Below are positions 34,321 to 64,000 of a DNA stretch of 64,000 bases, piece after piece; positions within the stretch are counted from its first letter, which is position 1; each line of letters begins with the position of its first letter. The notes under the pieces are model-generated. The model had not been told where the DNA came from and made no database searches. It worked only from the letters and a program-made list of their open reading frames with translations. Origin of the DNA: Antedon mediterranea (taxonomy: Eukaryota; Animalia; Echinodermata). The DNA lies in contig NC_092676.1 in assembly GCF_964355755.1 (NCBI RefSeq), positions 5,681,888 through 5,745,887 on the forward strand, given 5' to 3'. A program made the position numbers and the translations under genes.

Positions 34321-34429
34321 CACATTCACACTAATGTTTTATTTTACGGAAGGGAAGACGGCGTCGTTATTTTTTACCAAAACGGTATCGTCTTCCGTTC
34401 CGTGAAATGGAATTTTGAATGGGAGTATT

Positions 34430-36176: not shown

Positions 36177-37191
36177 TCACAATGTATTAAGTGGAATCTG
36201 TACAACTGCCGGTTGACGCACTTTGCACTTAAACATATATACAATTGTGTAAAGATAAGGATTGACTGAGGAGTTGATGGGGATGATGAATGTCGCCGCC
36301 CAAACATATATGTCATCAGGAATCGTCATCCAACCCATCTCAGAACCAATTGCCATTACTATAATCGGACCCCAGCAACAGAAATCAGTGAAAACTATTA
36401 AGCCTAGTTTCCTCGCCATTTTCAACTGTTCTTTCCTCATCTGTCGTCTATTGACAGTGGCCCCCGATCTCTTAACCGATAAGAAGATTACGAGGTAGCT
36501 CACTGTTATTACAATGAACCCGATTCCGTTAAATACAACAAACATGGCGACTGCATACTCCCAGCCTTGCCAATGACTTTTTGTCAGAGGTAGTGCGAGG
36601 CACACACTCTCTTTGCCATAGTAATTATCCCCAAAATATGAAATATCTGTTATTGGAAGAAAACTCAGCACAATCCAGAAAAGCCATGCGAAGCCGATAA
36701 TGATTCGACATTTTGTACGATTGAGGCGTTTCGTACTAAATGGATTAACAATGTTAATAGCTCGATCCACACTCAGCAGCATCAGTGTAAACACTGAGCA
36801 TTGCCCAGAGAGTGTAGAAATTGCCCCGGCAAAGCTGCAAAGGAAACTGCTCTTCCAATCCCTTGCAACTTTGGCATACCGTCCACGATAGTGTACATCC
36901 GCACTCGCAATGATGATCAAGTAGACAGCCATTAGCAAGTCAGACACGGCAAGATTAGTAATGAGTGTGGTTTGAACCTTATTTACATTGTTACCTGAAT
37001 CATTATCCTTTTTAAACTTTCGTGATATGATGACAATCAAATTTCCAATGACTGATGACACCCCAATGATCATCATCAATACACGGAGAACTTCGCTTTT
37101 TAGTAAGTCGTCACAAGAAGCAAATGCATCAACGGGTTCGCAGACATCAATGACACCAACAAGGCAACAGAGACGAGAAAAATCCGATTTC
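36177..37191 (-). CDS. LGR copy 1 terminal exon: hinge + rhodopsin-class 7TM
   Basis: LCC...CEPVDAFASCDDLL hinge, GNLIVI, NLAVSDLLM, SVDR, VCLALP, FTDFCCWGPI, INSSVNPYLYT; acceptor ctcatag, stop TGA. Confidence 0.97.
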
Positions 37192-40100
37192 CTATGAGAG
37201 TAAAGTAAACTTGGCAAATGAATTTGAATAGTTATTTTTTTCGGAGGCCCAAATTGTTACTCTTCGATCCCTAAAATAATGAGTAAAGGTTTAGAATAGT
37301 CGAAGATTAATTGTGAAAGTACATTTTTATGATACTTTCGGATAAATAAGAATAATAAAATACTATCTGTTTATAAGCATAATAACACATCGAATATCAT
37401 GATTGTAACATAGCCGAATTAACTATTAATTTTAATATATCTATTTAAATTGAACATAATTAAAACATTTACCACATTCAAATTATCAAATGTAACTTAC
37501 TTAACTAAAACACCGACATATTTAACATTCAATAAAATTATTTACTGTACATATAGCAAAGAGAATAAATACTAATAGCTGCATAAGTTTGTATGAGCAT
37601 CTCTCATACTTCTATCATACTTACAATTCTTTTAAATTGTTCAGTTCTTCAAAAGTTCTATCTCTGTAATTCTGTAAGTTCTTCCCTTGTAACCATCTAT
37701 AGGATAACACATTAGAAATGAATTAGGAACAGGCTAATACATTTTGAAAAAAGTAAAGTTTTCAAACTATGGTTTATGTATGCTTTTCTTGAAGAAAATA
37801 CATTAACTATGTATATTTTAACTGTTATGAATCCTCTTTATCTTTATCTTTGAATGTGGTCTGTATATTTTTGTATTGTTTTTAAGAGGGCCTCTTCAAG
37901 TCAGCTGTACTGCTGTAGTACTGTTAGAGCTACCCTTGTAAAACAAATTTGAATGAATAAATAAATATATTAATATTTTATTTATCTGTACATAACACTA
38001 TTCTAAATTCAAGACCCCTGATGAAAACCAAATAAACTTTATTTGTTTACTTGTTTGCGAAGTTTTCCATTCAAATTCAGTGGTTGAATACATCCGTTGT
38101 GTTCGAAGTTCTTATTATTATTGTATGTTTTTTAACGTTTTGTACTGTAAGGCCTATAGAACGGATACATATAACTATTCAAATGCAAAGCTTCCTCACA
38201 TTTTGACATTGAATCGTACAGCAAAAACTTTATTTTTTATTTTATTTGTTTACAGCAATAACTCCTTTACGGCTTCACAAGTGTGTTATAAAATCATGTT
38301 AACTTACAAACGTGAAAGTGTTGAAGCAAAAGAAGAAAATGCACCTGGTTTTATGGTAGTTATAGCGTTTTCCTGTAAATACCTGTTAAGATAACCAATA
38401 TGTATTATTACATATCTTGTTTTTCACATTACATTAAGTAAAGTACAGATACAAGTATTATTGTATTACACATTGCATAATATTCAATACTCTCCTATAC
38501 ATTAATTCCTTGTCTCTTCTGGGTATTTTTTTTTTAATAAGGGGACAAAAAGTTTACTTTTTTATTGAATCTCATCAAATAATTGTTTGTTAATTATTGT
38601 TTGTTAATCTTAATATTCAATTGATTTTTTTACAACAATTGATAACACAGTGATTAGTAGACTGGTTATAATACAACAAATGTAAATTAGACTGGATCAT
38701 ATAGAAAGTAGTTCTGTTTCTGGGATGTACGTTTATTATATATATATGAATATTATCTACATAGTAAATTCTGATGGCCTGGGTATACTTTAATCAGGCT
38801 TAAATATATGTTTTATTTTGTTATTCTCATAAACACAATTTTTATAGGAAATCATAACAATTTGTTATCATCTTTATGTATTTAATAATACATAAAGATG
38901 ATAACAAATTGTTATGATTTCCTATTATTTAATTTACCTAAATAATGACCAATACACAATTATTAATATCTTTAAACAATGAATAATTTAATGAAAATTG
39001 TTAATACTGTATGTGATTTTTTTTTAAATACTGTTTTTTGATCAAATTATGAATGATAAACTGCATAATATTCATTATTATGAATTATTTCATTTGTTTT
39101 CTTTTTAAATAAATTAAAACAAACAAATTAATTTTAGAAAAATACTTACAGTTCTGTCAGTGCTGTCAATCTATCAAATACATTGGCTGGCAATGTACTT
39201 ATTTGGTTGCTGCTCAAACTCCTTCAAAATAAAAGAAAGGTACAGTAACAACTACAATATTCAAGTTGTTTTAAATGTCAACTTTTATTTTCGAAATACA
39301 TTTTGAATTATTTTAATAGTCTTTCAGTCAATGATAGGGACATTATCTACATAGTAAATGCTGACAAGTATTCTTTAATTAGGCAAAAATTAACTGTTAA
39401 AATAATAATGTGTTATTCTCATTATCACAAATTCTATAGAAAATTTTAAATATTTATTATCATCCAAATGTATTTAACATTTTATGTATTTAATTAAATC
39501 TCTAATGATCAATGAACAATTATAGATAATCTTTAAAAAATGAATAATTTATTAATAATGGTTAAATAATGTTACTGCATAATATTAAATGCTGATAAGT
39601 ATTCTTTAATTAGGTAAAAATTAACTGTTAAAATAATAATGTTTTATTCTCATTATCACAAATTCTATAGAAGATTCTTAATATTTATTATCATCTTAAT
39701 GTCTTTATCATTTTTATGTATTTAATTAAATCTCTTTAAATAATGATCAATGAACAATTATTGATAATCTTTAAAAAATTAATAATTTAATAACAATGCC
39801 AACAGCCATAAGTTGCGTAATAATATGCATAGTGATACCGGACCGACAGACCGACAGACCGACAGACAGACCGACCGACATAGGGAACTATAGAGTCGCG
39901 TCCACGCGACTAATAATGGTTAAATAATGTTACTGCATAATATTCAGTATTATAAATTATTTTATTATTTATTTTAAAACAAATTAAACGAAGGAATTAA
40001 TATGAGTCAAAATACTTACAGCTCTGTCAATGCTGTCAATCTATCAAATACATTGGCTGGCAATGTACTTATTTGGTTACCCCACAAATCCCTTCAAAGT

Positions 40101-43100
40101 AAAAACAATGTACAGTAACAATTACAATATTTAAGCTGTTTGATATGTCAACTTTTATTTTCGAAATACATTTTTGAATTATTTTAATAATCTTTCAGTC
40201 AATGATAAGGACATTATCTACATAGTAAATGCTGATGAGTATTCTTGAATTAGGCAAAAATTAACTGTTAAAATAATAATGTGTTATTCTCATTATCACA
40301 AATTCTATAGAAAATTCAAAATATTTATTATCTACTTAATGTATTTATCATTTTTATGTATTTAATTAAATCTCTTTAAATAATGACCAATAAAAAATTA
40401 TTGATAATCTTTAAAAAAATAAATAATTTATTAATAATGGTTAAATGTTACCGCATAATATTCAGTATTATAAATTATTTTATTATTTATTTAAAAACAA
40501 ATTCAACGAAGGAATCAATATGAGTCAAAATACTTACAGGCGTTTCAGTGCTATCAATCTATCAAATACATTGGCTGGCAATGTACTTATTTGGTTGCTG
40601 CTCAAACTCCTTCAAAATAAAAGAAAGGTACAGTAACAACTACAATATTCAAGTTGTTTGAAATGTCAACTTTTATTTTCGAAATACATTTTGAATTATT
40701 TTAATAGTCTTTCAGTCAATGATAGGGACATTATCTACATAGTAAATGCTGACAAGTATTCTTTAATTAGGCAAAAATTAACTGTTAAAATAATAATGTG
40801 TTATTCTCATTATCACAAATTCTATAGAAAATTTTAAATATTTATTATCATCCTAATGTTTTTAACATTTTATGTATTTAATTAAATTTCTAATGATCAA
40901 TGAACAATTATAGATAATCTTTAAAAAATGAATAATTTATTAATAATGGTTAAATAATGTTACTGCATAATATTCAGTATTATTAATTATTGTATTGTTT
41001 ATTTAAAAACAAATTAAACGAAGGAATTAATATGAGTCAAAATACTTACAATATTGTCAGTGCTGTCAATCTATCAAATGAATTGGCTGGCAATGTACGT
41101 ATTTTATTAAAGCCCCAATGCCTTCAAAGTAAAAACAATGTACAGTAACAATTACAATATTCAAGTTGTTTGATATTTCAACTTTTATTTTTCGATATAC
41201 ATTTTTGAATTATTTTAATAGTCTTTCAGTCAATGATAGGGACATTATCTACATAGTAAATGCTGATGAGTATTCTTTAACTAGGTAAAAATTAACTGTT
41301 AAAATAATAATGTGTTATTCTCATTATCACAAATTCTATAGAAGATTCTTAATATTTATTATCATCTTAATGTATTTATCATTTTTATGTATTTAATTAA
41401 ATCTCTTTAAATATTGACCAATGAACAATTATTGATAATCTTTAAAAAATTAATAATTTATTAACAAGGCCAACAGCCATAAGTTGCGTAATAAAATGCA
41501 TAGTGATACCGGACCGACAGACCGACAGACCGACCGACCGACATAGGGAACTATAGAGTCGCGTCCACGCGACTAATAATGGTTAAATAATGTTACTGCC
41601 TAATAATATTCAGTATTATAAACTATTTTATTATTTATTTTAAAACAAATAAAACGAAGGAATTAATATGAGTCAAAATACTTACAGTAATGTCAGTGCT
41701 GTCAGTCTATCAAATACATTGGCTGGCAATGTACTTATTTTGTTTCTGTACAAATCCCTTCAAAGTAAAAACAATGTGCAGTAACAATTACAATATTCAA
41801 GCTGTTTAGAATCTCAACTTTTATTTTCGATATACATTTTTGAATTATTTTGTATAGTCTTTCAGTCAATGATAGGAACATTATCTACATAGTAAATGCT
41901 GATGAGTATTTTTTATTTAGGCAAAAAGTAACTGGTAAAATGATAATGTGTTATTCTCATTATCACAAATTCTATAGAAAATTCAAAATATTTATTATCA
42001 TCTTAATGTATTTATCATTTTTATGTATTTAATTAAATCTCTTTAAATAATGATCAATGAACTTTTATTGATAATCTTTACAAAAAATGAATAATTTATT
42101 AATAATGGTTAAATGTTACCGCATAATATTCAGTATTATAAATTATTTTATTATTTATTTAAAAACAAATTAAACGAAGGAATCAATATGAGTCAAAATA
42201 CTTACAGCCATGTCAATGCTGTCAATCTATCAAATACATTGGCTGGCAATGTACTTATTTGGTTGATTCTCAAACTCCTTCAAAATAAAAGAAAGGTACA
42301 GTAACAACTACAATATTCAAGTTGTTTGAAATGTCAACTTTTATTTTCGAAATACATTTGGAATGATTGTAATAGTCTTTCAGTCAAAGATAGGGACATT
42401 ATCTACATAGTAAATGCTGATAAGTATTCTTTAATTAGGCAAAAATTAACTGTTAAAATAATAATGTGTTATTCTCATTATCACAAATTCTATAGAAAAT
42501 TCAAAATATTTATTATCATCTTAATGTATTTATCATTTTTATGTATTTAATTAAATCTCTTTAAATAATAATCAATGAACAATTATTGATAATCTTTAAA
42601 AATGAATAATTTATTAATAATGGTTAAATAATGTTACTGCATAATATTCAGTAGTATAATTTATTTTATTATTTAATTAAAAACAAATTAAACGAAGGAA
42701 TTGATATGAGTCAAAATACTTACAGATGTGTCAGTGCTGTCAATCTATCAAATACATTGGCTGGCAATGTGCTTATTTGGTTATTGTACAAAAACCTTCA
42801 AAGTAAAAACAATGTACAGTAACAATTACAATATTCAAGCTGTTTGATATGTTAACTTTATTTCTCATATACATTTTGAATTATTATAATAGTTTTTCAG
42901 TCAATGGTAGGGACATTATCTACATAGTAAATGCTGATGAGTATTTTTTAATTAGGCAAAAATTAACTGTTACAATAATAATGTGTTATTCCCATTATCA
43001 CAATTTCTGTAGAAAATAATTCTAAATATTTATTATCATCTTCATGTATTTATCATTTTTATGTATTTAATTAAATCTTTTTAAATAATGATCAATGAAC

Positions 43101-44331
43101 AAGTATTGATAATCTGTAAAAAAGGAATAATTTATTAATAATGGTTAAATAATGTTACTGCATAATATTCAGTATTATAAATTATTTTCTTATTTATTTA
43201 AAAACAAATTAAACGAAGGAATTAATATGAGTCAAAATACTTACAGGTGTGTCAATGCTGTCAATCTATCAAATACATTGGCTGGCAATGTACTTATCCG
43301 GTTAAAACTCAAATCCCTTCAATGTAAAAGAAAAGTACATTAACAATTACAATATTTGATATTCCATTCATACAGGTATAGGCCTACAGTGATTGTGCTT
43401 GGGGTATATAAAGTGACCCCACAAAATGAAATTATTTCTGATAACTCTAAGTACTAAATTTCAAATTGTCATTAGGTCATTATTACATATTTTAAAATAT
43501 ATATTATATATATTTTTAAATTCCACGTTTTATAATAAACTTACAATGAAATGTTTGCACTGACAATAACCATATACTTACAACTCTGTTACTGGAATAT
43601 GATCATTATACTCGTTGATGGTTGCGATGTTATTAATACTCCATGGAGGACGACATTCCACTCTGTGACCGTAAGTAGACCAATTAGGCGCACCACATTC
43701 ACAGTCGGCTGGACATTCTGCATTTGGACAACTCGGAGATACATCAGGAAAGAAAAAGGGGAAACTGTCTTGTATTCAAAATATATGTAGTGTTACAAAT
43801 GCAATCAAATCAAATATAATGTCTAGCTGTGACCGCTCAATTAAATATAATTCGAATCAGATAAAAAAAAATGAATTCACAATCACGTAAAAATAAATAC
43901 TGTATAGTACTGTATATAAACAAAAGTTGAACATTAACATTTAAATCAGATTGTCTTCGAAGTTTAATAACAGTACTGTTGTTTTAAACCAACAAAACAG
44001 TATAGTTTGTATGAGGCATACTGTTCAAAGACAGGGCTAAAACATACTAACAAATAGTATCAAATACTAAACAGTTAGTTAATGAAAATAACACACTCAT
44101 TAGTATAATTATTATACTGTATTACTTATCAATGCATAAAGAAAATTTAAAGAATGAAGCAATCATACCGGAAAGGGCGAAGTCACTGCCACTACTATCA
44201 TAGTCAGACTGATAAGTGTAAATGGTAAAGTTACCAGAATAACTGAAATAGTAACTAAAACAACGAGAACAAGGTAATACAGCCAATATAACAATACAAT
44301 ACAGTAGTATGATTCCTCTCAAGATGAACAT
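36177..44331 (-). CDS. LRR-containing GPCR (type C LGR, RXFP/GRL101-like), copy 1, ~695 aa, 13 coding exons
   Basis: Exons in transcript order: 44331-44169 (signal peptide MFILRGIILLYCIVILAVLPCSRC), 43768-43582 (LRRNT CPADCECG...VEC), eight 72-nt LRR exons (43316-43245, 42795-42724, 42277-42206, 41757-41686, 41121-41050, 40609-40538, 40091-40020, 39221-39150), 38382-38308, 37696-37625, 37191-36177 (hinge + 7TM). All GT-AG; total 2088 nt in frame. The exon 1/2 junction is the least certain. Confidence 0.9.
37625..37696 (-). CDS. LGR copy 1 last LRR exon (72 nt)
   Basis: WLQGKNLQNYRDRTFEELNNLKEL, AG/GT flanks, phase 2-2. Confidence 0.9.
38308..38382 (-). CDS. LGR copy 1 penultimate LRR exon (75 nt)
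   Basis: YLQENAITTIKPGAFSSFASTLSRL, AG/GT flanks, phase 2-2. Confidence 0.9.
39792..39913. mobile_element. Small Helentron/DINE-like insertion in an array intron
   Basis: aacaa..ccaacagccataagttgcgt, (gacc/gaca)n microsatellite, terminal hairpin agtcgcg-tcca-cgcgact; interrupts the standard intron unit. Confidence 0.65.
41463..41576. mobile_element. Second copy of the Helentron/DINE-like insertion at the homologous intron position
   Basis: Same sequence and insertion point as 39792-39913, with a shorter microsatellite. Confidence 0.65.
43582..43768 (-). CDS. LGR copy 1 exon 2: LRR N-terminal cap
   Basis: SFPFFFPDVSPSCPNAECPADCECGAPNWSTYGHRVECRPPWSINNIATINEYNDHIPVTEL; gtaagt donor, phase 2. 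Acceptor is either 43768 (phase 1) or 43764 (phase 2). Confidence 0.85.
44169..44331 (-). CDS. LGR copy 1 exon 1: signal peptide and Ser/Tyr-rich N-terminus
   Basis: aagATG, hydrophobic core IILLYCIVILAVL; donor G|gtatga is phase compatible with exon 2. Confidence 0.75.
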
Positions 44332-44676
44332 CTTCTTCAATCGTAATCAATTTAATAAACTTTACTTCTGCGAGTCCACTCAGTATATGAACAATATACT
44401 TTGTTACTATCTTTATTTACCTGTATTTATTAAACTTTTTTTAAAATATTAAACATTTAGATACCGTCACCGGATGCATTAATAAAATTATGAGTTGTTA
44501 ATATTTTATAATATTTTTTTATCCATGTGAGCACAAGATTTTTAAAACACATGGACCCAGAATTGTTGAAAAGTGCTAAGTTTGATTAAAGAGAATACAT
44601 TTTGTAGGTATAATCTAGACTGGGTGCTAAGCGAATAACAAACAAATGGGAGAAGGTGGTATCTGAAAAGTTAGAA

Positions 44677-47675
44677 ATAGATGGTACGCTCGCTTCGCTC
44701 GCGTACCATCTAGGTCGTGCCCACAGATGGTTCTCGAATACACTGTAATTTCAGGGTAAAAAATCTGGCGATTTCAAATGCACGTACCGCAGGACTATAA
44801 TACATTGTCGTTTACAGAAACGAATAAGTAGACACAATGATTTATGTAGTCAACCAAAATTAGCACCCTGGGAATTACTTCCGAAAGAGAAACTTACCAC
44901 AAAATGAGTCCAAATTGTTTATTCATTTAAAGAAACCCAATTAGGGTTGAGGGATGGGAAAGAGGATAGGTACAAAGAGGAACAATTTTTAAATATATTC
45001 TTTATCCACGTCAGTAACGAAATATTGTTTTCATTTTTTATAGGCCTATAAATAATATACCACTAACGGTGACTAAATATAGTAAAACATTTGCGATTTA
45101 ATAATTTGTTAAAACTGTCACTGTCATAGTCGATTGAAATAGTAAAGTACATGTAACAATACACCACTACGACGTTTATATTTTTTGTAATTATTAATTA
45201 ATGCAAACGTTGAGAAGCAACTGTCAGTAATAAAGTTTATTTGTATATTACGTGTGTATATATCTAACAGTAGAGCCTACCCATAATCACACTAATAAAG
45301 TTTATTTGTATATATTTTTTTACATCTAACAGTATTCACAGTAAGAAATGTTTGTATATATTTTTTTACATCTAACAGTATTCACAGTAAGAAATGTTCG
45401 ATTCAAATGACGACCAAAAATGGTTAATATGTATTTGCAGTACTGTATTGTCAAAGTATTGCAAGTTTATTCTCCAAGGGCTCATAAATTTACCTACTTG
45501 TGTTAAACCAAACTGGCAGACTGAGAGATTGGAATGTTCCATTCATCGCAAATCAATACATTTGTAAAAACGTAAATTAAATCTATCAAAATATTATTTT
45601 TTAAAGAAAATCGGCCTGTCTTCAACATTATGATGCTGTACTCGAGCAGTTCAACCGGTTTTCAGCTATTAAAAACAATTATCGTAGGAGGAGATAGGAA
45701 AATACGAAGCGTCCTCGTATTATTGTGTGCGGGTATTTTTCAAGTTGGACATCCATTAGACAGTGTATACCACGATCGGAAAACACCCCTATTTGGGGCA
45801 AATCGTTGAACCTAAATTCGTTTTAATCGTCAATAACTAATTATCTAACTCAATTTAATTAGTAAACAGGGTTACATCAGGTGGTTAAAATCAGTACCGA
45901 AAGTATGAACCAACTTTATATACCATCGAGTAAAAATTCTAGAAATAAACCGCGTTTTATCGAATTTTGCCCTTACGTAAATTTATATAACTAGATGGCA
46001 CGCTCGCTTCGCTCGCGTACCATCTAGGTCGTGCCCACAGATGGTTCTCGAATACACAGTATTTCCAGCGAGAAAAAAATGGAGATATCAAATGTACGTA
46101 CCGCAGGACTATAATACATTGTCGTTTACAGAAACGAATAAATATACACAATGATTTATGTAGTCAACCAAAATTAGCACCCTGGGAATTACTTCCGAGA
46201 GAGAAACAAAATGAGTCAAATTTTTTTATTTGGACTCATTTAAACAAACCCAATTTGTGTTTTGTATGTAACATTAAGGGTTGAGGGATGGGGGAAGAAT
46301 ATAGGTACAAAGAGGAAACATTTTAAAATATATTCTTATCCACTCAGTAACGAAATATTGTTTTTAATGTTTTATAGGCCTATAAATAATATACCACTAA
46401 ATACAGTAAAACATTTACGATTTAATACGGTACTTTGTTAAAACTCTCACTGTCATAGTCGATTGAAATAGTAAAGTACATGTAACGATACACCACTACG
46501 ACGTTTATATATTTTTAAATTATTAATTAATACAAACGTTGAGAAGCAACTGTCAGTAATAACGTTTATTTATTTGTATATTATATGTTTATAATCTAAC
46601 AGCAGGGCCTACCCACACTCACAGTAATAAAGATTATTTGTATATATTTTTATATTACATCTAACAGTACCAACACTCACAGTAAGAAATTTGCGATTCA
46701 AATTGCGATCAAAAGTGGTTAATACCTTAACAGTATTGTACAGCATTGCAATACTATTTATGTTTATTCTCCAAGGGGGCCCATAAATCTAAATCTATAC
46801 CTCTATGGTTAAACCAAATAATTTGGAATGTTTATTTGTATATTATATGTTTATAATCTAACAGTAGGGCCTACCCACACTCACAGTAATAAAGTTTATT
46901 TGTATATATTTTTATATTACATCTAACAGTACCAACACTCACAGTAAGAAATTTGCGATTCAAATTGCGATCAAAAGTGGTTAATACCTTAACAGTATTG
47001 TACAGCATTGCAATACTATTTATTTTTGTGGATTTTTACTTTTATGTTAAACCAAGACAACGAAAAGGAATAAAATTACCTTCGTGACGTTTCGCCGACA
47101 ATCTGTCAGCTGCTTCAGACTAATGCCTGGGTTGGAATACTATTTATGTTTATTCTCCAAGGGGGCCCATAAATCTAAATATATACCTGTATGGTTAAAC
47201 CAAATAATTTGGAATGTTCCATTCATCACAAATCAATACATTTGTAAAAACGTATATTAAATGTATCAAAATAGTATTTTTTAAAGAAAATCGGCCTGTC
47301 TTCAACATTATGATGCTGTACTCGAACTGTTCAACCGGTTTTCAGCTATTAAAAACAATTATCGTAGGAGGAGATAGGAAAATGCGAAGCCTCCTCGCAT
47401 TTTTGTGGCGGGTATTTTTCAAGATGGACATCCATTAGACAGTGTATACCACGATCGGAAAACACCCCTATTTGGGGCAAATCGTTGAACCTAAATTCGT
47501 TTTAATCGTCAATAACTAATTATCTAACTTAATTTAATTAGTAAACAGGGTTACATCAGGTGGTTAAAATCAGTACCGAAAGTACGAACCAACTTTATAT
47601 ACCATCGAGTAAAAATTCTAGAAGTAAGGCGCGATTTACCGAATTTTGCCCTTACGTAAATTTATATATAGAAGA
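44677..47675 (-). mobile_element. Head-to-tail dimer of a non-autonomous Helitron (44677-45990 and 45991-47675)
   Basis: On -: 5' a|TCTTCTATATATA, 3' hairpin tagatggtacgc-gagcgaagcga-gcgtgccatCTAG. The two units are collinear. The element is absent from the paralogous site at ~31565-31590. Confidence 0.8.
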
Positions 47676-51334: not shown

Positions 51335-52349
51335 TTACAATGTATTAAGTGGAATCTGTACAACTGCCGGTTGACGCACTTTGCACTTAAACATATATAC
51401 AATTGTGTAAAGATAAGGATTGACTGAGGAGTTGATGGGGATGATGAATGTCGCCGCCCAAGCATATATGTCATCAGGAATTGTCATCCAACCCATCTCA
51501 GAACCAATTGCCATTACTATAATCGGACCCCAGCAACAGAAATCTGTGAAAACTATTAAGCCTAGTTTCCTCACCATTTTCAACTGTTCTTTCCTCATCT
51601 GTCGTCTATTGACAGTGGCCCCCGATCTCTTAACCGATAAGAAGATTACGAGGTAGCTCACTGTTATTACAATGAACCCGATTCCGTTAAATACAACAAA
51701 CATGGCGACTGCATACTCCCAGCCTTGCCAATGACTTTTTGTCAGAGGTAGTGCGAGGCACACACTCTCTTTGCCATAGTAATTATCCCCAAAATATGAA
51801 ATATCTGTTATTGGAAGAAAACTCAGCACAATCCAGAAAAGCCATGCGAAGCCGATAATGATTCGACATTTTGTACGATTGAGGCGTTTCGTACTAAATG
51901 GATTAACAATGTTAATAGCTCGATCCACACTCAGCAGCATCAGTGTAAACACTGAGCATTGCCCAGAGAGTGTAGAAATTGCCCCGGCAAAGCTGCAAAG
52001 GAAACTGCTCTTCCAATCCCTTGCAACTTTGGCATACCGTCCACGATAGTGTACATCCACACTCGCAATGATGATTAAGTAGACAGCCATTAGCAAGTCA
52101 GACACGGCAAGATTAGTAATGAGTGTGGTTTGAACCTTATTTACATTGTTACCTGAATCATTATCCTTTTTAAACTTTCGTGATATGATGACAATCAAAT
52201 TTCCAATGACTGATGACACCCCAATGATCATCATCAATACACGGAGAACTTCGCTTTTTAGTAAGTCTTCACAAGAAGCAAATGCATCAACGGGTTCGCA
52301 GACATCAATGACACCAACAAGGCAACAGAGACGAGAAAAATCCGATTTC
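51335..52349 (-). CDS. LGR copy 2 terminal exon: hinge + 7TM
   Basis: Near-identical to copy 1. Three visible aa changes: SAD>SVD, MAR>MVR, YVW>YAW; stop TAA. Confidence 0.97.
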
Positions 52350-55300
52350 CTATGAGAGAGTAAAGTAAACTTGTCAAATGAATTTGAATAGTTATTTTTT
52401 TCGGAGGCCCAAATTGTTACTCTTCGATCCCTAAAATAATGAGTAAAGGTTTAGAATAGTCGAAGATTAATTGTGAAAGTACATTTTTATGATACTTTCG
52501 GATAAATAAGAATAATAAAATACTATCTGTTTATAAGCATAATAACACATCGAATATCATGATTGTAACATAGCCGAATTAACTATTAATTTTAATATAT
52601 CTATTTAAATTGAACATAATTAAAACATTTACCACATTCAAATTATCAAATGTAACTTACTTAACTAAAACACCGACATATTTAACATTCAATAAAATTA
52701 TTTACTGTTCATATAGCAATAAGAATAAAACAGTAGCTGCATAAGTTTGTATGAGAATCTCTCATACTTTTATCATACTTACAATTCTTTTAAATTGTTC
52801 AGTTCTTCAAAAGTTCTATCTCTGTAATTCTGTAAGTTGTTCCCTTGTAACCATCTATAGGATAACATATTAGAAATAAATTAAGAATAGGCTAATACAT
52901 TTTGAAAATAGTAAAGTTTTAAAACTATGGTTTATGTATGCTTTTCTTGAAGAAAATACATGAACTATGTATATTTTAACTGTTATGAATCCTCTTTATC
53001 TTTATCTTTGAATTTGGTCTGTATATTTTTGTATTGTTTTTAAGAGGGCCTCTTCAAGTCAGCTGTACTGCTGTAGTACTGTTAGAGCTACCCTTGTAAA
53101 ACAAATTTGAATGAATAAATAAATATATTAATATTTTATTTATCTGTACATAACACTATTCTAAATTCAAGACCCCTGATGAAAACAAAATACACTTTCT
53201 TTGTTTACTTGTTTGCGAAGTTTTCCATTCAAATTCAGTGGTTGAATACATCCTTTGTGTTCGAAGTTCTTATTATTATTGTATGTTTTTACGTTACGTT
53301 TTGTACTGTAATGCCTATAGCACTGATACATATAACTATTCAAATGCAAAGCTTCCTCACATTTTGACATTGAATCGTACAGCAAAAACTTTATTTTTTA
53401 TTTTATTTGTTTACAGCAATAACTCCTTTACGGCTTCACAAGTGTGTTATAAAATCATGTTAACTTACAAATGTGAAAGTGATGAAGCAAAAGAAGAAAA
53501 TGCACCTGGTTCTATGGTAGTTATAGCGTTTTCCTGTAAATACCTGTTAAGATAACCAATATGTATTATTATATATCTTGTTTTTCACATTACATTAAGT
53601 ACAGTACAGATACAAGTATTATTGTATTACAAATTGCATAATATTCAATACTCTCATATACATTAATTCCTTGTCTATTCTGGGTATTTTTTTTTTAATA
53701 AGGGGACAAAAAGTTCACTTTTTTATTGAATCTCATCAAATAATTGTTTGTTAATTATTGTTTGTTAATCTTAATATTAAATTGATTTTTTTTACAACAA
53801 TTGATAACACAGTGATTAGTAGACTGGTTATAATACAACAAATATAAATTAGACTGGATCATAATAATAGAAAGTAGTTCTGTTTCTGGGATGTACGTTT
53901 ATTATCTACATGTAAATGCTGATGGCCTGGGTATACTTTAATAAGGCTTAAATATATGTTTTATTTTGTTATTCTCATAAACACAATTTTTATAGGAAAT
54001 CATAACAATTTGTTATCATCTTTATGTATTTAATAATATAGTTATTTAATTTACCTAAATAATGACCAATACACAATTATTAATATCTTTAAACAATGAA
54101 TAATTTAATGAAAATTGTTAATACTGTATGTGATTTTTTTTTTAAATACTGTGTTTGTTGATCAAATTATGAATGATAAACTGCATTATATTCATTGTTA
54201 TGAATTATTTCATTTGTTTTCTTTTTAAGTAAATTAAAACAAATAAATTAATTTTAGAAAAATACTTACAGTTTTGTCAGTGCTGTCAATCTTTCAAATA
54301 CATTGGCTGACAATGTACTTATTTGGTTATAACCCAAATGCCTTCAAAGTGAAAACAATGTACAGTAACAATTACAATATTCAAGCTGTTCGATATGTCA
54401 ACTTTTATTTTCAATATACATTTTTTAAATATTTGTATAGTCTTTCAGTCAATGATAGGGACATTATCTACATAGTAAATGCTGATGAGTATACTTTAAT
54501 TAGGCAAACATAAACTATAATGGTTAAATAATGTTAATGCATAATATTCAGTATTATAAATTATTTTATTATTTATTTCAAAAACAAATTTAACGAAGGA
54601 ATTAATATGAGTCAAAATACTTACAGTAATGTCAGTGCTGTCAATCCATCAAATACATTGGCTGGCAATGTACTTATTTGGTTACGGTTCAAATACCTTC
54701 AAAGTAAAAGAAAGATACAGTAACAATTACAATAGTCAAGTTGTTTGAAATGTCAACTTTTATTTTAGATATATATTTTTGAATTATTTGTATAGTCTTT
54801 CAGTTAATGATAGGGACATTATCTACATAGTAAATGCTGATGAGTATTCTTTAATTAGGCAAAAATTAACTGTTAAAATGACAATGTTTTATTCTCATTA
54901 TCACAAATTCTATAGAAAATTCTAAATATTTATTATCATCCTAATGTATTTAACATTTTATGTATTTAATTAAATCTCTAATGATCAATGAACAATTATA
55001 GATAATCTTTAAAAAATGAATAATTTATTAATAATGGTTAAATAATGTTACTGCATAATATTCAGTATTATAAATTATTTTATTATTTATCTAAAAACAA
55101 ATTAAACGAAGGAATTAATATGAGTCACAATACTTACAGTTCTCTTAGTGCTGTCAATCTATCAAATACATTGGCTGGCAATGTACTTATTTGGGTACGG
55201 TTCAAATACCTTCAAAATAAAAGAAAGATACAGTAACAATTACAATATTCAAGCTGTTTGATATGTCAACTTTTATTTTAGATATACATTTTTGAATTAT

Positions 55301-58300
55301 TTGTATAGTCTTTCAGTTAATGATAGGGACATTATCTACATAGTAAATGCTGATGAGTATTCTTTAATTAGGCAAAAATTAACTGTTAAAATGATAATGT
55401 GTTATTCTCATTATCACAAATTCTATAGAAAATTCTAAATATTTATTATCATCCTAATGTATTTAACATTTTATGTATTTAATTAAATCTCTAATGATCA
55501 ATGATCTTTAAAAAATGAATAATTTATTAATAATGGTTAAATAATGTTACTGCATAATATTCAGTATTATAAATTATTTTATTAATTATTTATTTAAAAA
55601 CAAATTAAACGAAGGAATTAATATGAGTCAAAATACTTACAGTTTTCTCAGTGCTGTCAATCTATCAAAAACATTGGCTGGCAATGTACTTATTTTGTTA
55701 GCATTCAAAGTCCTTCAAAGTAAAAACAATGTACAGTAACAATTACAATATTTAAGCTTTTTGATATGTCAACTTTTATTTTCGAAATACATTTTGAATT
55801 ATTTTAATAGTCTTTCAGTCAATAATAGGGACATTATCTACACAGTAAATGCTGATGAGTATTCTTTAATTAGGCAAAAAGTAACTGTTAAAATAATAAT
55901 GTGTTATTCTCATTATCACAAATTCTATAGAAGATTCTAAATATTTATTATCATCTTAATGTATTTATCATTTATATGTATTTAGTTAAATCTCTTTAAA
56001 TAATGACCAATGAAAAATTATTGATAATCTTTAAAAAATGAATAATTTATTAATAATGGTTAAATAATGTTACTGCATAATATTCAGTATTATAAATTAT
56101 TTTATTATTTATTTAAAAACAAATTAAACGAAGGAATTAATATGAGCAAAATACTTACAGGATTGTCAGTACTGTCAATCTATCAAATACATTTGCAGGC
56201 AATGTACTTATTTTGTTCCAGCCCAAACTCCTTCAAAGTAAAAGAAAGATACAGTAACAATTACAATATTCAAGTTGTTTGACATGTCAACTTTTATTTT
56301 TCTTATACATTTTGAATTATTTTTTATTGTCTTTCAGTCAATGATAAGGACATTATCTACATAGTAAATGCTGATGAGTATTCTTTAATTAAGCAAAAAG
56401 TAACTGTTAAAATAATAATGTGTTATTCTCATTATCACAAATTCTATAGCAAATTCTAAATATTTATTATCATCTTAATGTATTTATCATTTTTATGTAT
56501 TTAATTAAATCTCTTTAGATAATGATCAATGAACAATTATTGATAATCTTTAAAAAATGATTAATTTATTAATAATGGTTAAATAATGTCACTGTATAAT
56601 ATTCAGTATTATAAATAATTTTATTATTTATTTAAAAACAAATTAAACGAAGGAATTAATATGAGAAAAATACTTACAGTCCTGTCAGTGCTGTCAATCT
56701 ATCAAATACATTGGCTGGCAATGTTCTTATTCTGTTACCATGCAAATACCTTCAAAGTAAAAACAATGTACAGTATCAATTACAATATTCAAGTTGTTTG
56801 ATATGTCAACTTTTATTTTCGATATACATTTTTGAATTATTTGTATAGTCTTTCAGTCAATGATAGGGACATTATCTACATAGTAAATGCTGATGAGTAT
56901 TCTTTATTTAGGCAAAAATTAACTGTTAAAATAATAATGTGTTATTCTCATTATCACAAATTCTATAGCAAATTCGAAATATTTATTATCATCCTAATGT
57001 ATTTATCATTTAAATGTATTTAATTAAATCTCTTTAAAAAATGACCACTCAAACCCCTTCAAAATAAAAGAAAGGTGCAGTAACAAGTACAATGTTTGAT
57101 ATTCTATTCATACACAATGAACTGTAAAAATTACAATAATATTCAAGCTGTTCGATATGTCAACTTTTTCTTTTTTTATACATTTTTAATTATTTTTATT
57201 GTCTTTCAGTCAATGATAGGGACATTATCTACATAGTAAATGCTGATAAGTATTCTTTAATTAGTCAAAAATTAACTGTTAAAATAATAATGTGTTATTC
57301 TCATTATCACAAATTCTATAGCAAATTCTAAATATGTATTATCATCTTAATGTATTTATCATTTTTATGTATTTAATTAAATCTCTTTAGATAATGATCA
57401 ATGAACAATTATTGATAATCTTTAAAAAAATGATTAATTTATTAATAATGGTTAAATAATGTTACTGTATAATATTCAGTATTATAAATAATTTTATTAT
57501 TTATTTAAAAACAAATTAAACGAAGGAATTAATATGAGAAAAATACTTACAGTAATGTCAGTGCTGTCAATCTATCAAAAACATTGGCTGGCAATGTACT
57601 TATTTGGTTAAAGTCCAAATACCTTCAAAGTAAAAAATAATGTACAGTATCAATTACAATATTCAAGTTGTTTGATATGTCAACTTTTATTTTCGATATA
57701 CATTTTTGAATTATTTGTATAGTCTTTCAGTCAATGATAGGGACATTATCTACATAGTAAATGCTGATGAGTATTCTTTATTTAGGCAAAAATTAACTGT
57801 TAAAATAATAATGTGTTATTCTCATTATCACAAATTCTATAGCAAATTCGAAATATTTATTATCATCCTAATGTATTTATCATTTAAATGTATTTAGTTA
57901 AATCTCTTTAAATAATGACCAATGAACAATTATTGATAATCTTTAAAAAATGAATAATTTATCAATAATGGTTAAATAATGTTACTGCATAATATTCAGT
58001 ATTATAAATTATTTTATTATTTATTTAAAAACAAATTAAACGAAGGAATTAATATGAGTCAAAATACTTACAGATGTGTCAGTGCGGTCAATCTATCAAA
58101 TACATTGGCTGGCAATGTACGTATTTGGTTGCTGAACAAATACCTTCAAAGTAAAAGAAAGATACAGTAACAATTACAATATTCAAGCTGTTTGAAATGT
58201 CAACTTTTATTTTTCTTATACATTTTGAATTATTTTATAGTCTTTCAGTCAATGATAGGGACATTATCTACATAGTAAATGCTGATGAGTATACATTAAT

Positions 58301-61300
58301 TAGGCAAAAATTAACTGTTAAAATAATAATGTGTTATTCTCATTATCACAAATTCTATAGCAAATTCTAAATATTTATTATCATCCTAATGTATTTAACA
58401 TTTTATGTATTTAATTAAATCTCTAATGATCAATGATCTTTAAAAAATGAATAATTTATTAATAATGGTTAAATAATGTTACTGCATAATATTCAGTATT
58501 ATAAATTATTTTATTAATTATTTATTTAAAAACAAATTAAACGAAGGAATTAATATGAGTCAAAATACTTACAGTTTTCTCAGTGCTGTCAATCTATCAA
58601 AAACATTGGCTGGCAATGTACTTATTTTGTTAGCATTCAAAGTCCTTCAAAGTAAAAACAATGTACAGTAACAATTACAATATTTAAGCTTTTTGATATG
58701 TCAACTTTTATTTTCGAAATACATTTTGAATTATTTTAATAGTCTTTCAGTCAATAATAGGGACATTATCTACACAGTAAATGCTGATGAGTATTCTTTA
58801 ATTAGGCAAAAAGTAACTGTTAAAATAATAATGTGTTATTCTCATTATCACAAATTCTATAGAAGATTCTAAATATTTATTATCATCTTAATGTATTTAT
58901 CATTTATATGTATTTAGTTAAATCTCTTTAAATAATGACCAATGAAAAATTATTGATAATCTTTAAAAAATGAATAATTTATTAATAATGGTTAAATAAT
59001 GTTACTGCATAATATTCAGTATTATAAATTATTTTATTATTTATTTAAAAACAAATTAAACGAAGGAATTAATATGAGCAAAATACTTACAGGATTGTCA
59101 GTACTGTCAATCTATCAAATACATTTGCAGGCAATGTACTTATTTTGTTCCAGCCCAAACTCCTTCAAAGTAAAAGAAAGATACAGTAACAATTACAATA
59201 TTCAAGTTGTTTGACATGTCAACTTTTATTTTTCTTATACATTTTGAATTATTTTTTATTGTCTTTCAGTCAATGATAAGGACATTATCTACATAGTAAA
59301 TGCTGATGAGTATTCTTTAATTAAGCAAAAAGTAACTGTTAAAATAATAATGTGTTATTCTCATTATCACAAATTCTATAGCAAATTCTAAATATTTATT
59401 ATCATCTTAATGTATTTATCATTTTTATGTATTTAATTAAATCTCTTTAGATAATGATCAATGAACAATTATTGATAATCTTTAAAAAAATGATTAATTT
59501 ATTAATAATGGTTAAATAATGTCACTGTATAATATTCAGTATTATAAATAATTTTATTATTTATTTAAAAACAAATTAAACGAAGGAATTAATATGAGAA
59601 AAATACTTACAGTAATGTCAGTGCTGTCAATCTATCAAAAACATTGGCTGGCAATGTACTTATTTGGTTAAAGTCCAAATACCTTCAAAGTAAAAAACAA
59701 TGTACAGTATCAATTACAATATTCAAGTTGTTTGATATGTCAACTTTTATTTTCGATATACATTTTTGAATTATTTGTATAGTCTTTCAGTCAATGATAG
59801 GGACATTATCTACATAGTAAATGCTGATGAGTATTCTTTATTTAGGCAAAAATTAACTGTTAAAATAATAATGTGTTATTCTCATTATCACAAATTCTAT
59901 AGCAAATTCGAAATATTTATTATCATCCTAATGTATTTATCATTTAAATGTATTTAGTTAAATCTCTTTAAATAATGACCAATGAACAATTATTGATAAT
60001 CTTTAAAAAATGAATAATTTATCAATAATGGTTAAATAATGTTACTGCATAATATTCAGTAATATAAATTATTTTATTATTTATTTAAAAACAAATTAAA
60101 CGAAGGAATTAATATGAGTCAAAATACTTACAGATGTGTCAGTGCGGTCAATCTATCAAATACATTGGCTGGCAATGTACGTATTTGGTTGCTGAACAAA
60201 TACCTTCAAAGTAAAAGAAAGATACAGTAACAATTACAATATTCAAGCTGTTTGAAATGTCAACTTTTATTTTTCTTATACATTTTGAATTATTTTATAG
60301 TCTTTCAGTCAATGATAGGGACATTATCTACATAGTAAATGCTGATTATCATCTTAATGTATTTACCATTTAATGTATTTAATTAAATCTCTTTAAAAAA
60401 TGACCACTCAAACCCCTTCAAAATAAAAGAAAGGTGCAGTAACAAGTACAATGTTTGATATTCTATTCATACACAATGAACTGTAAAAATTACAATAATA
60501 TTCAAGCTGTTCGATATGTCAACTTTTTTCTTTTTTTATACATTTTTAATTATTTTTATTGTCTTTCAGTCAATGATAGGGACATTATCTACATAGTAAA
60601 TGCTGATAAGTATTCTTTAATTAGTCAAAAATTAACTGTTAAAATAATAATGTGTTATTCTCATTATCACAAATTCTATAGCAAATTCTAAATATTTATT
60701 ATCATCTTAATGTATTTATCATTTTTATGTATTTAGTTAAATCTCTTTAGATAAGGATCAATGAACAGTTATTGATAATCTTTAAAAAAATGATTAATTT
60801 ATTAATAATGGTTAAATAATGTTACTGTATAATATTCAGTATTATAAATAATTTTATTATTTATTTAAAAACAAATTAAACGAAGGAATTAATATGAGAA
60901 AAATACTTACAGTCCTGTCAGTGCTGTCAATCTATCAAATACATTGGCTGGCAATGTACTTATTTTGTTATCACCCAAACTCCTTCAAAGTAAAAACAAT
61001 GTACAGTATCAATTACAATATTCAAGTTGTTTGATATGTCAACTTTTATTTTCGATATACATTTTTGAATTATTTGTATAGTCTTTCAGTCAATGATAGG
61101 GACATTATCTACATAGTAAATGCTGATGAGTATTCTTTATTTAGGCAAAAATTAACTGTTAAAATAATAATGTGTTATTCTCATTATCACAAATTCTATA
61201 GCAAATTCGAATTATTTATTATCATCCTAATGTATGTCAACTTTTTTCTTTTTTTATACATTTTTAATTATTTTTATTGTCTTTCAGTCAATGATAGGGA

Positions 61301-63628
61301 CATTATCTACATAGTAAATGCTGATAAGTATTCTTTAATTAGTCAAAAATTAACTGTTAAAATAATAATGTGTTATTCTCATTATCACAAATTCTATAGC
61401 AAATTCTAAATATTTATTATCATCTTAATGTATTTATCATTTTTATGTATTTAGTTAAATCTCTTTAGATAATGATCAATGAACAATTATTGATAATCTT
61501 TAAAAAAATGATTAATTTATTAATAATGGTTAAATAATGTTACTGTATAATATTCAGTATTATAAATAATTTTATTATTTATTTAAAAACAAATTAAACG
61601 AAGGAATTAATATGAGAAAAATACTTACAGTCCTGTCAGTGCTGTCAATCTATCAAATACATTGGCTGGCAATGTACTTATTTTGTTATCATTCAAACTC
61701 CTTCAAAGTAAAAACAATGTACAGTAACAATTACAATATTTAAGCTTTTTGATATGTCAACTTTTATTTTCGAAATACATTTTGAATTATTTTAATAGTC
61801 TTTCAGTCAATAATAGGGACATTATCTACACAGTAAATGCTGATGAGTATTCTTTAATTAGGCAAAAAGTAACTGTTAAAATAATAATGTGTTATTCTCA
61901 TTATCACAAATTCTATAGAAGATTCTAAATATTTATTATCATCTTAATGTATTTATCATTTATATGTATTTAGTTAAATCTCTTTAAATAATGACCAATG
62001 AAAAATTATTGATAATCTTTAAAAAATGAATAATTTATTAATAATGGTTAAATAATGTTACTGCATAATATTCAGTATTATAAATTATTTTATTATTTAT
62101 TTAAAAACAAATTAAACGAAGGAATTAATATGAGTCAAAATACTTACAGATGTGTCAGTGCTGTCAATCTATCAAATACATTGGCTGGCAATGTGCTTAT
62201 TTGGTTACCGTACAAATACCTTCAAAGTAAACATATATACTTATACATTTTGAATTATTTTAATAGTCTTTCAGTCAATGATAGTGACATTATCTACATA
62301 GTAAATGCTGATGAGTATTCTTTATTTAGGCAAAAAGTAACTGTTAAAATGATAATGTGTTATTCTCATTATCACAAATTCTATAGAAAATTCAAAATAT
62401 TTATTATCATCTTAATGTATTGATCATTTTTATGTATTTAATTAAATCTCTTTAAATAATAATCAATGAACAATTATTGATAATCTTTAAAAAATGAATA
62501 ATTTATTAATAAATACTGGTTAAATAATGTTACTGCATAATATTCAGTATTATAAATTATTTTATTATTTATTTAAAAACAAATTACACGAAGGAATTAA
62601 TATGAGTCAAAATACTTACAGCTGTGTCAGTGCTGTCAATCTATCAAATACATTGGCTGGCAATGTGCTTATTTGGTTACTGTTCAACCTCCTTCAAAGT
62701 AAAAACAATGTACAGTAACAATTACAATATTCAAGCTGTTTGATATGTCAACTTTTATTTTCGGTATACATTTTTTTTTAATTATTTGTATAGTCTTTCA
62801 GTCAATGATAGGGACATTATCTACATAGTAAATGCTGATGAGTATTCTTTAATTAGGCAAAAATTAACTGTTAAAATAATAATGTGTTATTTATTATCAC
62901 AAATTCTATAGTAAATTCTAAATATTTATTATCATCTTTATGTATTTATCATTTTTATGTATTTAATTAAATCTCTATAATGACCAATGAACAATTATCG
63001 ATAATCTTTTAAAAATGAAAAATGTATGAATAATGGCCTCTTCAAGTCAGCTGTATACTGCTCTAGTACTCTTATAGATACCATTGTAAAACAAATTTGA
63101 ATTAATAAATAAATTTATTTTTTATAGCAAATTCTAATTATTATTTGTTTTATTATTATCCTAATGTTTTATTATCATTTATCATTTATTATCTACATAA
63201 TAAATACTGATGGCCTGGGTATACTTTAATTAGGCTAAAATATATGTTTTATTTTGTTATTCTCATGAACATAATTTTTATAGGAAATCATACAAATTTG
63301 TTATCATCTTTATGTATTTAATAATATAATTATTTAATTTACCTAAATAATGACCAATAAACAATTATTAATATCTTTAAACAATGAATAATGTAATGAA
63401 AATTGTTAATACTGTATGTGATTTTTTTTTAAATACTGTGTTTGTTGATCAAATTATGAATGATAAACTGCATTATATTCATTGTTATGAATTATTTCAT
63501 TTGTTTTCTTTTTAAGTAAATTAAAACAAATAAATTAATTTTAGAAAAATACTTACAGTTTTGTCAGTGCTGTCAATCTATCAAATACATTGGCTGGCAA
63601 TGTACTTATTTGGTTACTGTTCAACCTC
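51335..63628 (-). CDS. LRR-containing GPCR (type C LGR, RXFP/GRL101-like), copy 2, 5' end outside the window
   Basis: Terminal exon 52349-51335 (1015 nt, as in copy 1), LRR exons 52854-52783 and 53543-53469, and 17 array exons of 72 nt with low coordinates 54270, 54625, 55138, 55641, 56159, 56678, 57551, 58072, 58573, 59091, 59611, 60132, 60911, 61629, 62148, 62620, 63557. All open with AG/GT flanks. Confidence 0.9.
52783..52854 (-). CDS. LGR copy 2 last LRR exon
   Basis: WLQGNNLQNYRDRTFEELNNLKEL. Confidence 0.9.
53469..53543 (-). CDS. LGR copy 2 penultimate LRR exon
   Basis: YLQENAITTIEPGAFSSFASSLSHL. Confidence 0.9.
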
Positions 63629-64000
63629 CTTCAAAGTAAAAACAATGTACAGTAACAATTACAATATTCAAGGTGTTTGAAATGTCAACTTTTATTTTCA
63701 ATATACATTTTTGAATTATTTCTATAGTCTTTCAGTCAATGATAGGGACATTATCTACATAGTAAATGCTGATGAGTATTCTTTAATTAGGCAAAAATTA
63801 ACTGTTAAAATGATAATGTGTTATTCTCATTATCACAAATTCTATAGAAAATTCTAAATATTTATTATCATCTTAATGTATTTATCATTTTTATGTATTT
63901 AATTAAATCTCTTTAAATAATGATCAATGAACAATTATTGATAATCTTTAAAAAATGAATAATTTATTAATACTGGTTAAATAATGTTACTGCATAATAT
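54270..64000 (-). repeat. Tandem array of ~515-bp exon+intron units, at least 17 LRR exons (copy 2), open at the window end
   Basis: Variants by ascending coordinate (5' end/3' end): HLGY/TK, YLNR/TL, YLNR/RE, TLNA/RK, SLGW/TI, YLHG/TG, YLDF/TL, YLFS/TH, TLNA/RK, SLGW/TI, YLDF/TL, YLFS/TH, SLGD/TG, SLND/TG, YLYG/TH, RLNS/TQ, RLNS/TK. Confidence 0.95.

Follow-up and report, generated by a model that had tools for sequence, protein, structure and literature searches.

The window analyzed here is a 64,000-nt stretch of the genome of the crinoid Antedon mediterranea (contig NC_092676.1, positions 5,681,888 to 5,745,887), and its minus strand carries two tandem copies of a predicted G-protein-coupled receptor (GPCR) gene in which a row of exons, each encoding a single leucine-rich repeat (LRR), lies upstream of a seven-transmembrane (7TM) exon (Table 1). 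A six-frame motif scan combined with a scan for AG...GT-bounded segments locates 25 such exons, 8 in copy 1 and 17 in copy 2, each 72 nt long in phase 2/2 and free of stops, with an acceptor ending gaag and the donor gtaagtatt. Twenty-one sequences are distinct both at the DNA level and as peptides, with four exact exon pairs (named by start position, 60203 and 58143, 59682 and 57622, 59162 and 56230, and 58644 and 55712). A short-word BLAST search of the window with one exon and its flanks returns exactly these 25 full copies and no other. The first-pass annotation, made from the letters alone, had listed 25 intact exons (8 and at least 17) giving 21 distinct peptides with no stops or frameshifts, and all are present. 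Spacing within the arrays is 501-521 nt in 15 of 23 intervals and 355-937 nt in the remaining eight, the exons of copy 1 sitting in AT-rich repeat units of about 515 nt.

Table 1. Features of the two receptor gene copies, in window coordinates
Feature	Position	Strand	Remarks
Copy 1 terminal exon, covering the last LRR's end, a short type C hinge, the 7TM and a short tail with stop TGA	36177..37191	-	
Copy 1 unique LRR exon B, 72 nt, phase 2	37625..37696	-	matches last LRR of paralogues
Copy 1 unique LRR exon A, 75 nt, phase 2	38308..38382	-	
Copy 1 array, 8 exons	39150..43316	-	starts 43316, 42795, 42277, 41757, 41121, 40609, 40091, 39221
Copy 1 Cys-rich LRRNT-like exon	43582..43744	-	acceptor TG; CPxxCxC motif
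Copy 1 predicted first coding exon: ATG and signal-peptide-like stretch	44169..44331	-	inferred from sequence
Copy 2 last exon: hinge and 7TM	51335..52349	-	
Copy 2 unique LRR exon B	52783..52854	-	
Copy 2 unique LRR exon A	53469..53543	-	
Copy 2 array, 17 exons	54270..63628	-	continues past window end; contains block duplications; starts 63628, 62691, 62219, 61700, 60982, 60203, 59682, 59162, 58644, 58143, 57622, 56749, 56230, 55712, 55209, 54696, 54341
Truncated 26th exon relic: acceptor and about 13 nt, then intron sequence	60403..60415	-	
Junction intron after exon 63628	62692..63556	-	array-end type, 96.5% identical to intron after 54270
Tandem gene duplication	34780..39395 vs 49956-54516		94.5% over 4641 columns

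Downstream of each array come two unique LRR exons (75 and 72 nt), then a 1015-nt hinge/7TM exon, the order that the first-pass annotation had claimed, and these exons are open to the stop in both copies. The last exon matches Pfam 7tm_1 in both copies (E about 3e-33), indicating that a class A 7TM domain is present, and is 32% identical to a ray LHCGR-like protein across the hinge end and the 7TM. A frameshift in the last exon of copy 1, suggested by the six-frame open reading frames, was rejected; the 2-nt ct indel near 37197 is intronic because in the paralogue model P0193 the splice uses the AG that lies downstream of it (database proteins are referred to by P numbers). Joined in silico, copy 1 gives an open frame of 687 amino acids (695 via an upstream LRRNT acceptor) and copy 2 one of 794 amino acids counted from the first array exon. 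The predicted first exon of copy 1 has a phase-1 donor at 44168, with an alternative donor at 44234, and its putative signal-peptide stretch has a mean hydropathy of 3.4 over 12 residues. The LRRNT-like exon gives no match in a Pfam scan and resembles paralogue P0117 in the CPxxCxC motif, although the match is weak (E 0.005). The signal-peptide and LRRNT exons proposed earlier for copy 1 are plausible, with the exception of the LRRNT acceptor, which is a TG. The product is predicted to comprise a signal peptide, an LRRNT, LRRs numbering 10 in copy 1 and at least 19 in copy 2, a short hinge and a class A 7TM domain; models of paralogues likewise unite LRRs and 7TM in a single protein. The duplication that produced the two copies has a further matching flank (31592-34406 and 47675-49935). 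Between the copies, 8 of the 1015 nt of the last exon are changed (four replacement changes, three silent changes and one in the stop codon), and the two introns before the last exon diverge by 1.6% and 2.6%.

Variation among the 21 distinct array exons is concentrated in a few codons. Codons 1, 3, 4 and 23 encode 7, 9, 10 and 9 different amino acids, codons 6 and 22 encode three each and codon 8 two, and the others are fixed or show one singleton; amino-acid heterozygosity is 0.83-0.91 at codons 1, 3, 4 and 23, 0.55 at codon 6 and at most 0.27 elsewhere. Read across the exon junction, codons 1, 3, 4, 23, 6 and 22 occupy positions x5, x7, x8, x3, x10 and x2 of the LRR motif LxxLxLxxNxL, and in the established LRR structure x2, x3, x5, x7, x8 and x10 form the concave face. 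Taken a priori, these six concave positions rank first of the 5005 six-position sets that can be drawn from the 15 non-core positions. A structure of paralogue P0202 predicted from its single sequence, in which the LRR part is usable with a predicted local distance difference test score of about 70-92 and the 7TM part scores below 50, places a strand at residues 41-45 covering x3-x7. A fold search with this model returns LGR4 and generic LRR proteins and is uninformative.

The uncorrected nonsynonymous divergence (pN) is 0.48 at the concave codons compared with 0.029 in the framework, where the synonymous divergence (pS) is 0.10 and beside which the intron p-distance between units is 0.075 and 0.049 (19 and 18 of the 21 units, those with standard flanks). 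Four to six of the concave codons approach saturation, while framework and introns differ little between units. In a tree-free count of bases, made on 17 and 18 of the 21 units, at least three bases occur at 9 of the 12 concave first and second codon positions compared with 4.9% of 223 intron columns (P 3e-10). A fixed-sites codon model gives an omega for the concave codons of 5.7 with the exon tree and 10.3 with the unit tree, and of 0.27 for the framework; omega = 1 is rejected for both classes (concave P below 1e-10, framework P about 1e-3), and giving the concave class its own rate yields an omega of 2.3-3.1 (P 0.044 and 0.006). The earlier claim of an expandable array with a fast-diversifying face agrees with this concave-limited variation and its signs of diversifying selection, and the feature is real and not neutral.

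Invariant codons are placed directly between the hypervariable ones, with codon 2 being TTG in 20 of 21 exons and codon 7 ATA in all 21. This pattern bears on the possibility that the genes encode a hormone receptor with a conserved ligand, with LRR exons that either rode along in a neutral expansion of the satellite or owe their diversity to a local hot spot of mutation. The relaxin/GRL101-type 7TM and hinge would suit such a receptor, RXFP1 being the best PDB sequence match of P0202 (E 6e-86), and the silent divergence at the variable codons is also raised (pS 0.36), which favors this possibility and weighs against a diversified receptor. Neither satellite expansion nor a hot spot explains variation limited to outward-facing codons with fixed codons between them, and codons 2, 5 and 7, which lie between variable ones, show hardly any change even at silent sites, making a regional hot spot improbable. 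A preprint reports single crinoid orthologues of the LGRs (leucine-rich repeat-containing GPCRs) for insulin-like peptides (bioRxiv 2021.04.15.440029), and the clade of the window genes is a derived expansion without LDLa modules, as described below. The explanation by a hormone receptor is largely refuted and we regard it as very improbable.

The arrays themselves bear traces of how they change. Two pairs of exons (61700/58644 and 60982/56749) have identical 200-nt upstream introns, yet the exons differ by 6-7 nt; the same exon 3' ends recur with different 5' ends, and the variable sites show multi-state incompatibility. The four exact exon pairs are due to block duplications. An assembly artefact was considered as the source of these blocks; they are 96.9-98.1% identical overall, though some unit flanks are identical over 200 nt. 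The junction intron in copy 2 changes from array-end intron to 85 nt of the intron that lies between the unique exons, after which array sequence resumes, and for this reason the 17 exons are probably two fused arrays with the junction intron as the scar of an unequal crossover. From the block-duplicated pairs, the recombined exon halves, the truncated relic and the fusion scar we infer that unequal crossover and short-tract conversion between units would account for the present arrays. Two copies of a GC-richer insertion of ~115 nt with a (GACCGACA)n run are seen inside array introns at about 39800-39910 and 41460-41575; the insertion is likely a small mobile repeat, since it matched very high-depth contigs, that was duplicated together with its array unit. 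Contigs of four sequencing runs over 35500-45500 cover exons and introns alike. Run X5, considered as possible RNA, has pieces that cross exon-intron borders and looks like DNA.

The best database relatives of the window genes are Antedon mediterranea proteins named GRL101-like, and the Antedon gene models of this kind number at least 30 on nine contigs (15 clusters with 29 members, and P0117), which is a lower bound. The relationships were examined with a quick maximum-likelihood tree of 73 hinge/7TM rows hand-picked from 212 proteins, with support given by the Shimodaira-Hasegawa-like approximate likelihood ratio test (SH-aLRT) only; it includes few type A and C1 references and no type B, and shows some long-branch joins among the outgroups. 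It contains a crinoid clade (SH-aLRT 100), and in the basal members of that clade Pfam identifies LDLa, CUB, SRCR or lectin domains, the nearest basal relatives with LDLa repeats being P0114, P0116, P0118 and P0119. Within it an inner clade (99) splits into six Anneissia rows and 23 Antedon rows, the latter forming a clade of their own (SH-aLRT 100). A Pfam scan of seven inner-clade members (P0009, P0010, P0115, P0117, P0198, P0202 and P0212) finds no LDLa, and a tblastn search of the window with five LDLa-bearing relatives uncovers no exon for this module, the 5' end of copy 2 lying beyond the window. The nesting in the tree and the absence of LDLa from the inner clade indicate that the window genes derive from GRL101-type receptors, that LDLa was lost and that each of two crinoids expanded the family on its own.

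The first-pass annotation had described the hinge/7TM exon as that of a type C LGR, and in the tree the window type does nest among LDLa-bearing GRL101-like crinoid proteins. The short hinge and 7TM are of the RXFP/GRL101 type, but the N-terminal LDLa module, a defining feature of type C LGRs (PMC11863921), is absent. According to Veenstra, ambulacrarians have a single orthologue of GRL101 and of each of its two sister receptors, and the available part of that paper does not mention a crinoid GRL101-derived expansion (bioRxiv 2021.04.15.440029). The main texts of three echinoderm genome papers (PMC13228809, PMC11310086 and PMC11959729) mention neither GRL101 nor LRR.

The expansion is specific to the lineage, as had been proposed, and the paralogues have arrays that differ from those of the window. 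P0202, P0198/P0195 and P0117 each have a homogenized framework of their own, amounting to three different consensus units, with variable concave sites. Framework homogeneity was scored on 49 proteins with at least five distinct 24-residue repeats, and P0202, P0198, P0117 and P0195 are the four most homogeneous of these; among 138 more representatives, 15 further proteins could be scored and none lies below 0.61, compared with 0.09-0.11 for the window arrays. Scallops and some partly intronless expansions also have long LRR-7TM proteins, in which the repeats are less uniform. LRR gain on this 7TM is thus recurrent, but extreme homogenization is seen only in Antedon. P0127, P0128, P0132, P0144 and P0170, from scallop or grouping with brittle-star proteins, are GRL101-like and have up to about 25 semi-homogeneous LRR motifs; by the same comparison they represent independent LRR expansions on the same 7TM. 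Twenty metagenome contigs from one assembly (L001-L020) also encode related LRR-7TM receptors, and in eight of them 14-17 LRR motifs stand in one uninterrupted frame, mostly together with the 7TM, which points to an intronless expansion of the same receptor type in another animal. In other Antedon relatives (P0119, P0116, P0010 and P0117) lectin, SRCR, CUB, proline-rich or long uncharacterized N-terminal parts precede the 7TM, and these predicted gene models suggest wide ectodomain swapping on a common 7TM.

The preferred interpretation, to which we give little better than even confidence, is that the window holds tandem crinoid GRL101-derived GPCR genes with interchangeable LRR exons, encoding a germline receptor whose binding face selection diversifies against fast-changing and probably foreign ligands. 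The predicted ectodomain would arise by splicing of consecutive single-LRR exons that are interchangeable, and because each is 72 nt long and in phase 2, any number or order of exons would keep the reading frame. Unequal crossover and short-tract conversion would copy and reshuffle the units, homogenizing the scaffold, while selection would retain new surface residues at x3, x5, x7 and x8 and to a lesser extent at x2 and x10. Each β-strand would straddle an exon junction, with its first part from one exon and its second from the following one, so that reshuffled exons would make new surfaces. By analogy with other LGRs, a ligand bound on the LRR arc or concave face would act via the short hinge on the intact class A 7TM. 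At its end the hinge can be aligned with the equivalent stretch of a gonadotropin receptor, where it serves as a tethered agonist; here it may stand in for the LDLa module.

The same exon layout would permit exons to be skipped in combinations, giving many isoforms per gene on top of germline change, a compatible addition to the germline receptor that we consider possible but not probable. All array exons are in phase 2/2, multiples of three in length and bounded by near-identical splice sites, and ROCO genes, which are laid out alike, yield as many as nine splice forms (PMC11378527). The paralogue models, which are predictions, string many repeats together, however, and a search of the inverted repeats of copy 1 for a Dscam-like docking element yields only a copy-specific hairpin and AT-rich chance matches. 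The hairpin is a perfect 39-nt inverted repeat with a 4-nt loop (38844-38925) in the intron after the last array exon of copy 1, and copy 2 has one arm only.

Several observations weigh against the diversified germline receptor. Recombination inflates the tree-based omega of the fixed-sites model. In the tree-free count the framework first and second codon positions have 0.32 extra bases per site, compared with about 0.33 in the introns (P 0.6), and the absence of exon indels is weak evidence (P about 0.09); because neither of these tests reveals it, current purifying selection is seen only in the codon model and in pN/pS. A core residue is altered in two exons (L to W at 41121 and N to T at 55209). 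The 5' end and first exons of copy 2 lie beyond the window, and the exon and LRR numbers given for it are minima. The polypyrimidine tract before the LRRNT exon of copy 1 ends in TG instead of AG (43746-43745). Five AGs were tested in the 100 nt before the first LRRNT Cys codon and only a weak aag at 43769, 24 nt upstream of the TG, and a distant tag at 43823 are in frame, a nearer cag being out of frame; dropping the exon shifts the reading frame, and copy 1 may be damaged at this acceptor. The database models of copy 1 (P0004) and copy 2 (P0194), identical to the window over 299 amino acids, are 7TM-only and omit every LRR exon, and the model of a third near-identical copy (P0193) has only the last LRR exon. 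Finally, loss of LDLa abolishes signaling in RXFP-type receptors (PMC2396169), so that activation here would need another route.

Part of this evidence would also fit recent decaying duplicates or silent exon reservoirs, with the selection signal coming from, or feeding, active paralogues elsewhere. The TG acceptor, the truncated relic, the fused array, the two altered core residues and the 7TM-only models agree with decay of both copies, as do a framework no less variable than the introns in the tree-free count and the share of replacements (4 of 7) among codon changes between the 7TM exons. Against decay, the frame and both splice sites are kept in 25 of 25 exons, both 7TM exons are open and diverge by 0.8% compared with 1.6-2.6% in the adjacent introns, the framework omega of 0.27 differs from 1, and copy 1 has an in-frame alternative acceptor. 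We consider decay quite unlikely.

The nature of the ligand can be approached by analogy, and the choice of microbial or parasite surfaces is a guess, favored because the same evolutionary signature marks known non-self receptors. The same diversification could instead be directed at own or environmental ligands, such as gamete or spawning signals, allorecognition markers or chemosensory cues. Sensory tentacles of the starfish Acanthaster are enriched in GRL101-like transcripts (PMC6267866), and in the snail Charonia such transcripts are tentacle-specific (PMC13403566), which speaks against an immune role; a GPCR output fits sensory cells, and the fungal HET-E with the same signature works in allorecognition (PMC1805685). 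The tentacle papers, however, treat LDLa-bearing or unspecified GRL101-like genes and not homogenized arrays, and the many surfaces per ectodomain and at least 30 paralogues would fit a broad repertoire better than a single partner. Own or environmental ligands are an unlikely alternative to the foreign ligands that we favor.

A bolder extension of the diversified germline receptor, which we consider doubtful, is an anticipatory immune repertoire of crinoids, with a hormone-receptor-type GPCR turned into dozens of LGR genes that have their own homogenized cassette arrays of VLR-like LRR exons, germline diversification by crossover and selection, combinatorial exon skipping and direct G-protein signaling. 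If true, deuterostomes would have a third way of making a variable receptor from LRRs, and this one would be the first based on a GPCR. Ordinarily, the ectodomain of a GPCR offers a fixed surface for binding a hormone. The ectodomain encoded here appears to evolve like a non-self receptor, with a constant scaffold, 4-6 hypervariable surface residues per repeat and a changing number of repeats. Expression in immune cells would make these receptors a new class among the innate receptor repertoires of echinoderms and would suggest concretely how orphan GRL101-like clusters, among them the snail cluster tied to schistosome resistance, might work. The modules may also serve as a natural library of LRR binders. 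Annotation pipelines miss such arrays, which are taken for satellites, and the family may be under-counted in many genomes. In the full-text literature searched, outside which most subscription papers, crinoid genome papers and supplements lie, neither a GPCR with a homogenized hypervariable array of LRR exons nor the crinoid expansion is reported.

Elsewhere in the window, three fragments with Pfam Tetraspanin matches mark the exons of a tetraspanin gene on the plus strand (17182-20058), and locally duplicated segments of high-copy repeats are placed upstream of copy 1 (44672-47668). Minisatellites occur at 7583-7935 (period 21 nt), 20049-20904 (163 nt), 23700-24018 (19 nt) and 34064-34320 (42 nt), the last having six units adjoining copy 1 and about one at the matching place by copy 2. 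An Rfam search of the window gives no match.

The closest relatives among known receptors are the GRL101 (type C2) LGRs and RXFP1/2 (type C1), which have in common with the window genes the 7TM, the short hinge and, as predicted for the window genes, an LRR ectodomain. They differ in that copy 1 and the scanned members of its clade lack LDLa, in the varying LRR number of the window genes (8+2 compared with at least 17+2), in repeats that are near-identical except on the concave face, and in the large lineage-specific family. A contrast with hormone-binding LGRs had been drawn in the first-pass annotation; the homogenized hypervariable array is new, but the layout of one LRR per phase-2 exon is already known from gonadotropin receptor genes (stated in PMC11378527). 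Sponge and ctenophore LGRs also have variable LRR numbers (PMC4079206). The Ciona LDLRR-GPCRs are a lineage-specific expansion with a relaxin-receptor-like 7TM and a variable number of ectodomain repeats, and form the mirror case in which the LDLa repeats are kept and the LRRs lost (PMC2396169). In Biomphalaria sudanica, SudRes2 is a tandem cluster of 12 GRL101-like GPCRs with presence/absence variation that is associated with schistosome resistance; its receptors differ from those of the window in having kept LDLa and added a C-type lectin, and no hypervariable LRR exon array is described in the available part of the report (PMC12297450).

The 24-residue module is very close to the LRRV module of the variable lymphocyte receptors (VLRs) of jawless fish, and the concave β-sheet is variable in both (PMC3900441). 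When one exon is compared with the PDB, VLRA, VLRB and VLRC chains and designs derived from VLRs make up the majority of the 45 best among 63 matches, and no single repeat match is significant alone; for this reason the likeness is best taken as a case of convergence toward a typical LRR, here in an invertebrate deuterostome, the window genes not being VLRs. VLRs are assembled somatically in a gene-conversion-like process with cytosine deaminases (PMC3900441). The window modules, in contrast, are exons with splice sites between the first and 7TM exons of a complete germline gene, and they lead into an LGR hinge and 7TM, whereas VLRs have a connecting peptide and an LRRCT cap without a 7TM. The resemblance to VLRs noted earlier is real at the sequence level, but there is no sign of somatic assembly.

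The parallel with the brown-algal (Ectocarpus) ROCO genes, also drawn in the first-pass annotation, extends further. These have tandem 72-bp phase-2 single-LRR exons, alternative splicing and a proposed immune role, and four positively selected concave sites (14, 16, 18 and 19) whose 2-2-1 spacing is that of x3, x5, x7 and x8 here (PMC11378527). The window likewise has tandem 72-bp phase-2 single-LRR exons with selection on four concave sites, as given by the fixed-sites model with recombination left out. The ROCO proteins are intracellular ROC-COR GTPases of a stramenopile for which alternative splicing is demonstrated, whereas in the window the array would form an extracellular GPCR ectodomain, alternative splicing may occur, the introns are homogenized as well, and the C-terminal part is a 7TM in place of a ROC-COR domain. 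The het-d/het-e NWD genes of Podospora resemble the window genes in their concerted repeats, four selected surface residues per repeat and variable repeat number, and act in non-self recognition, the difference being that their repeats are WD40 repeats in intracellular fungal proteins (PMC1805685). The genes described here place a diversification mechanism known from ROCO and HET-E on an unexpected carrier, a GRL101-derived GPCR.

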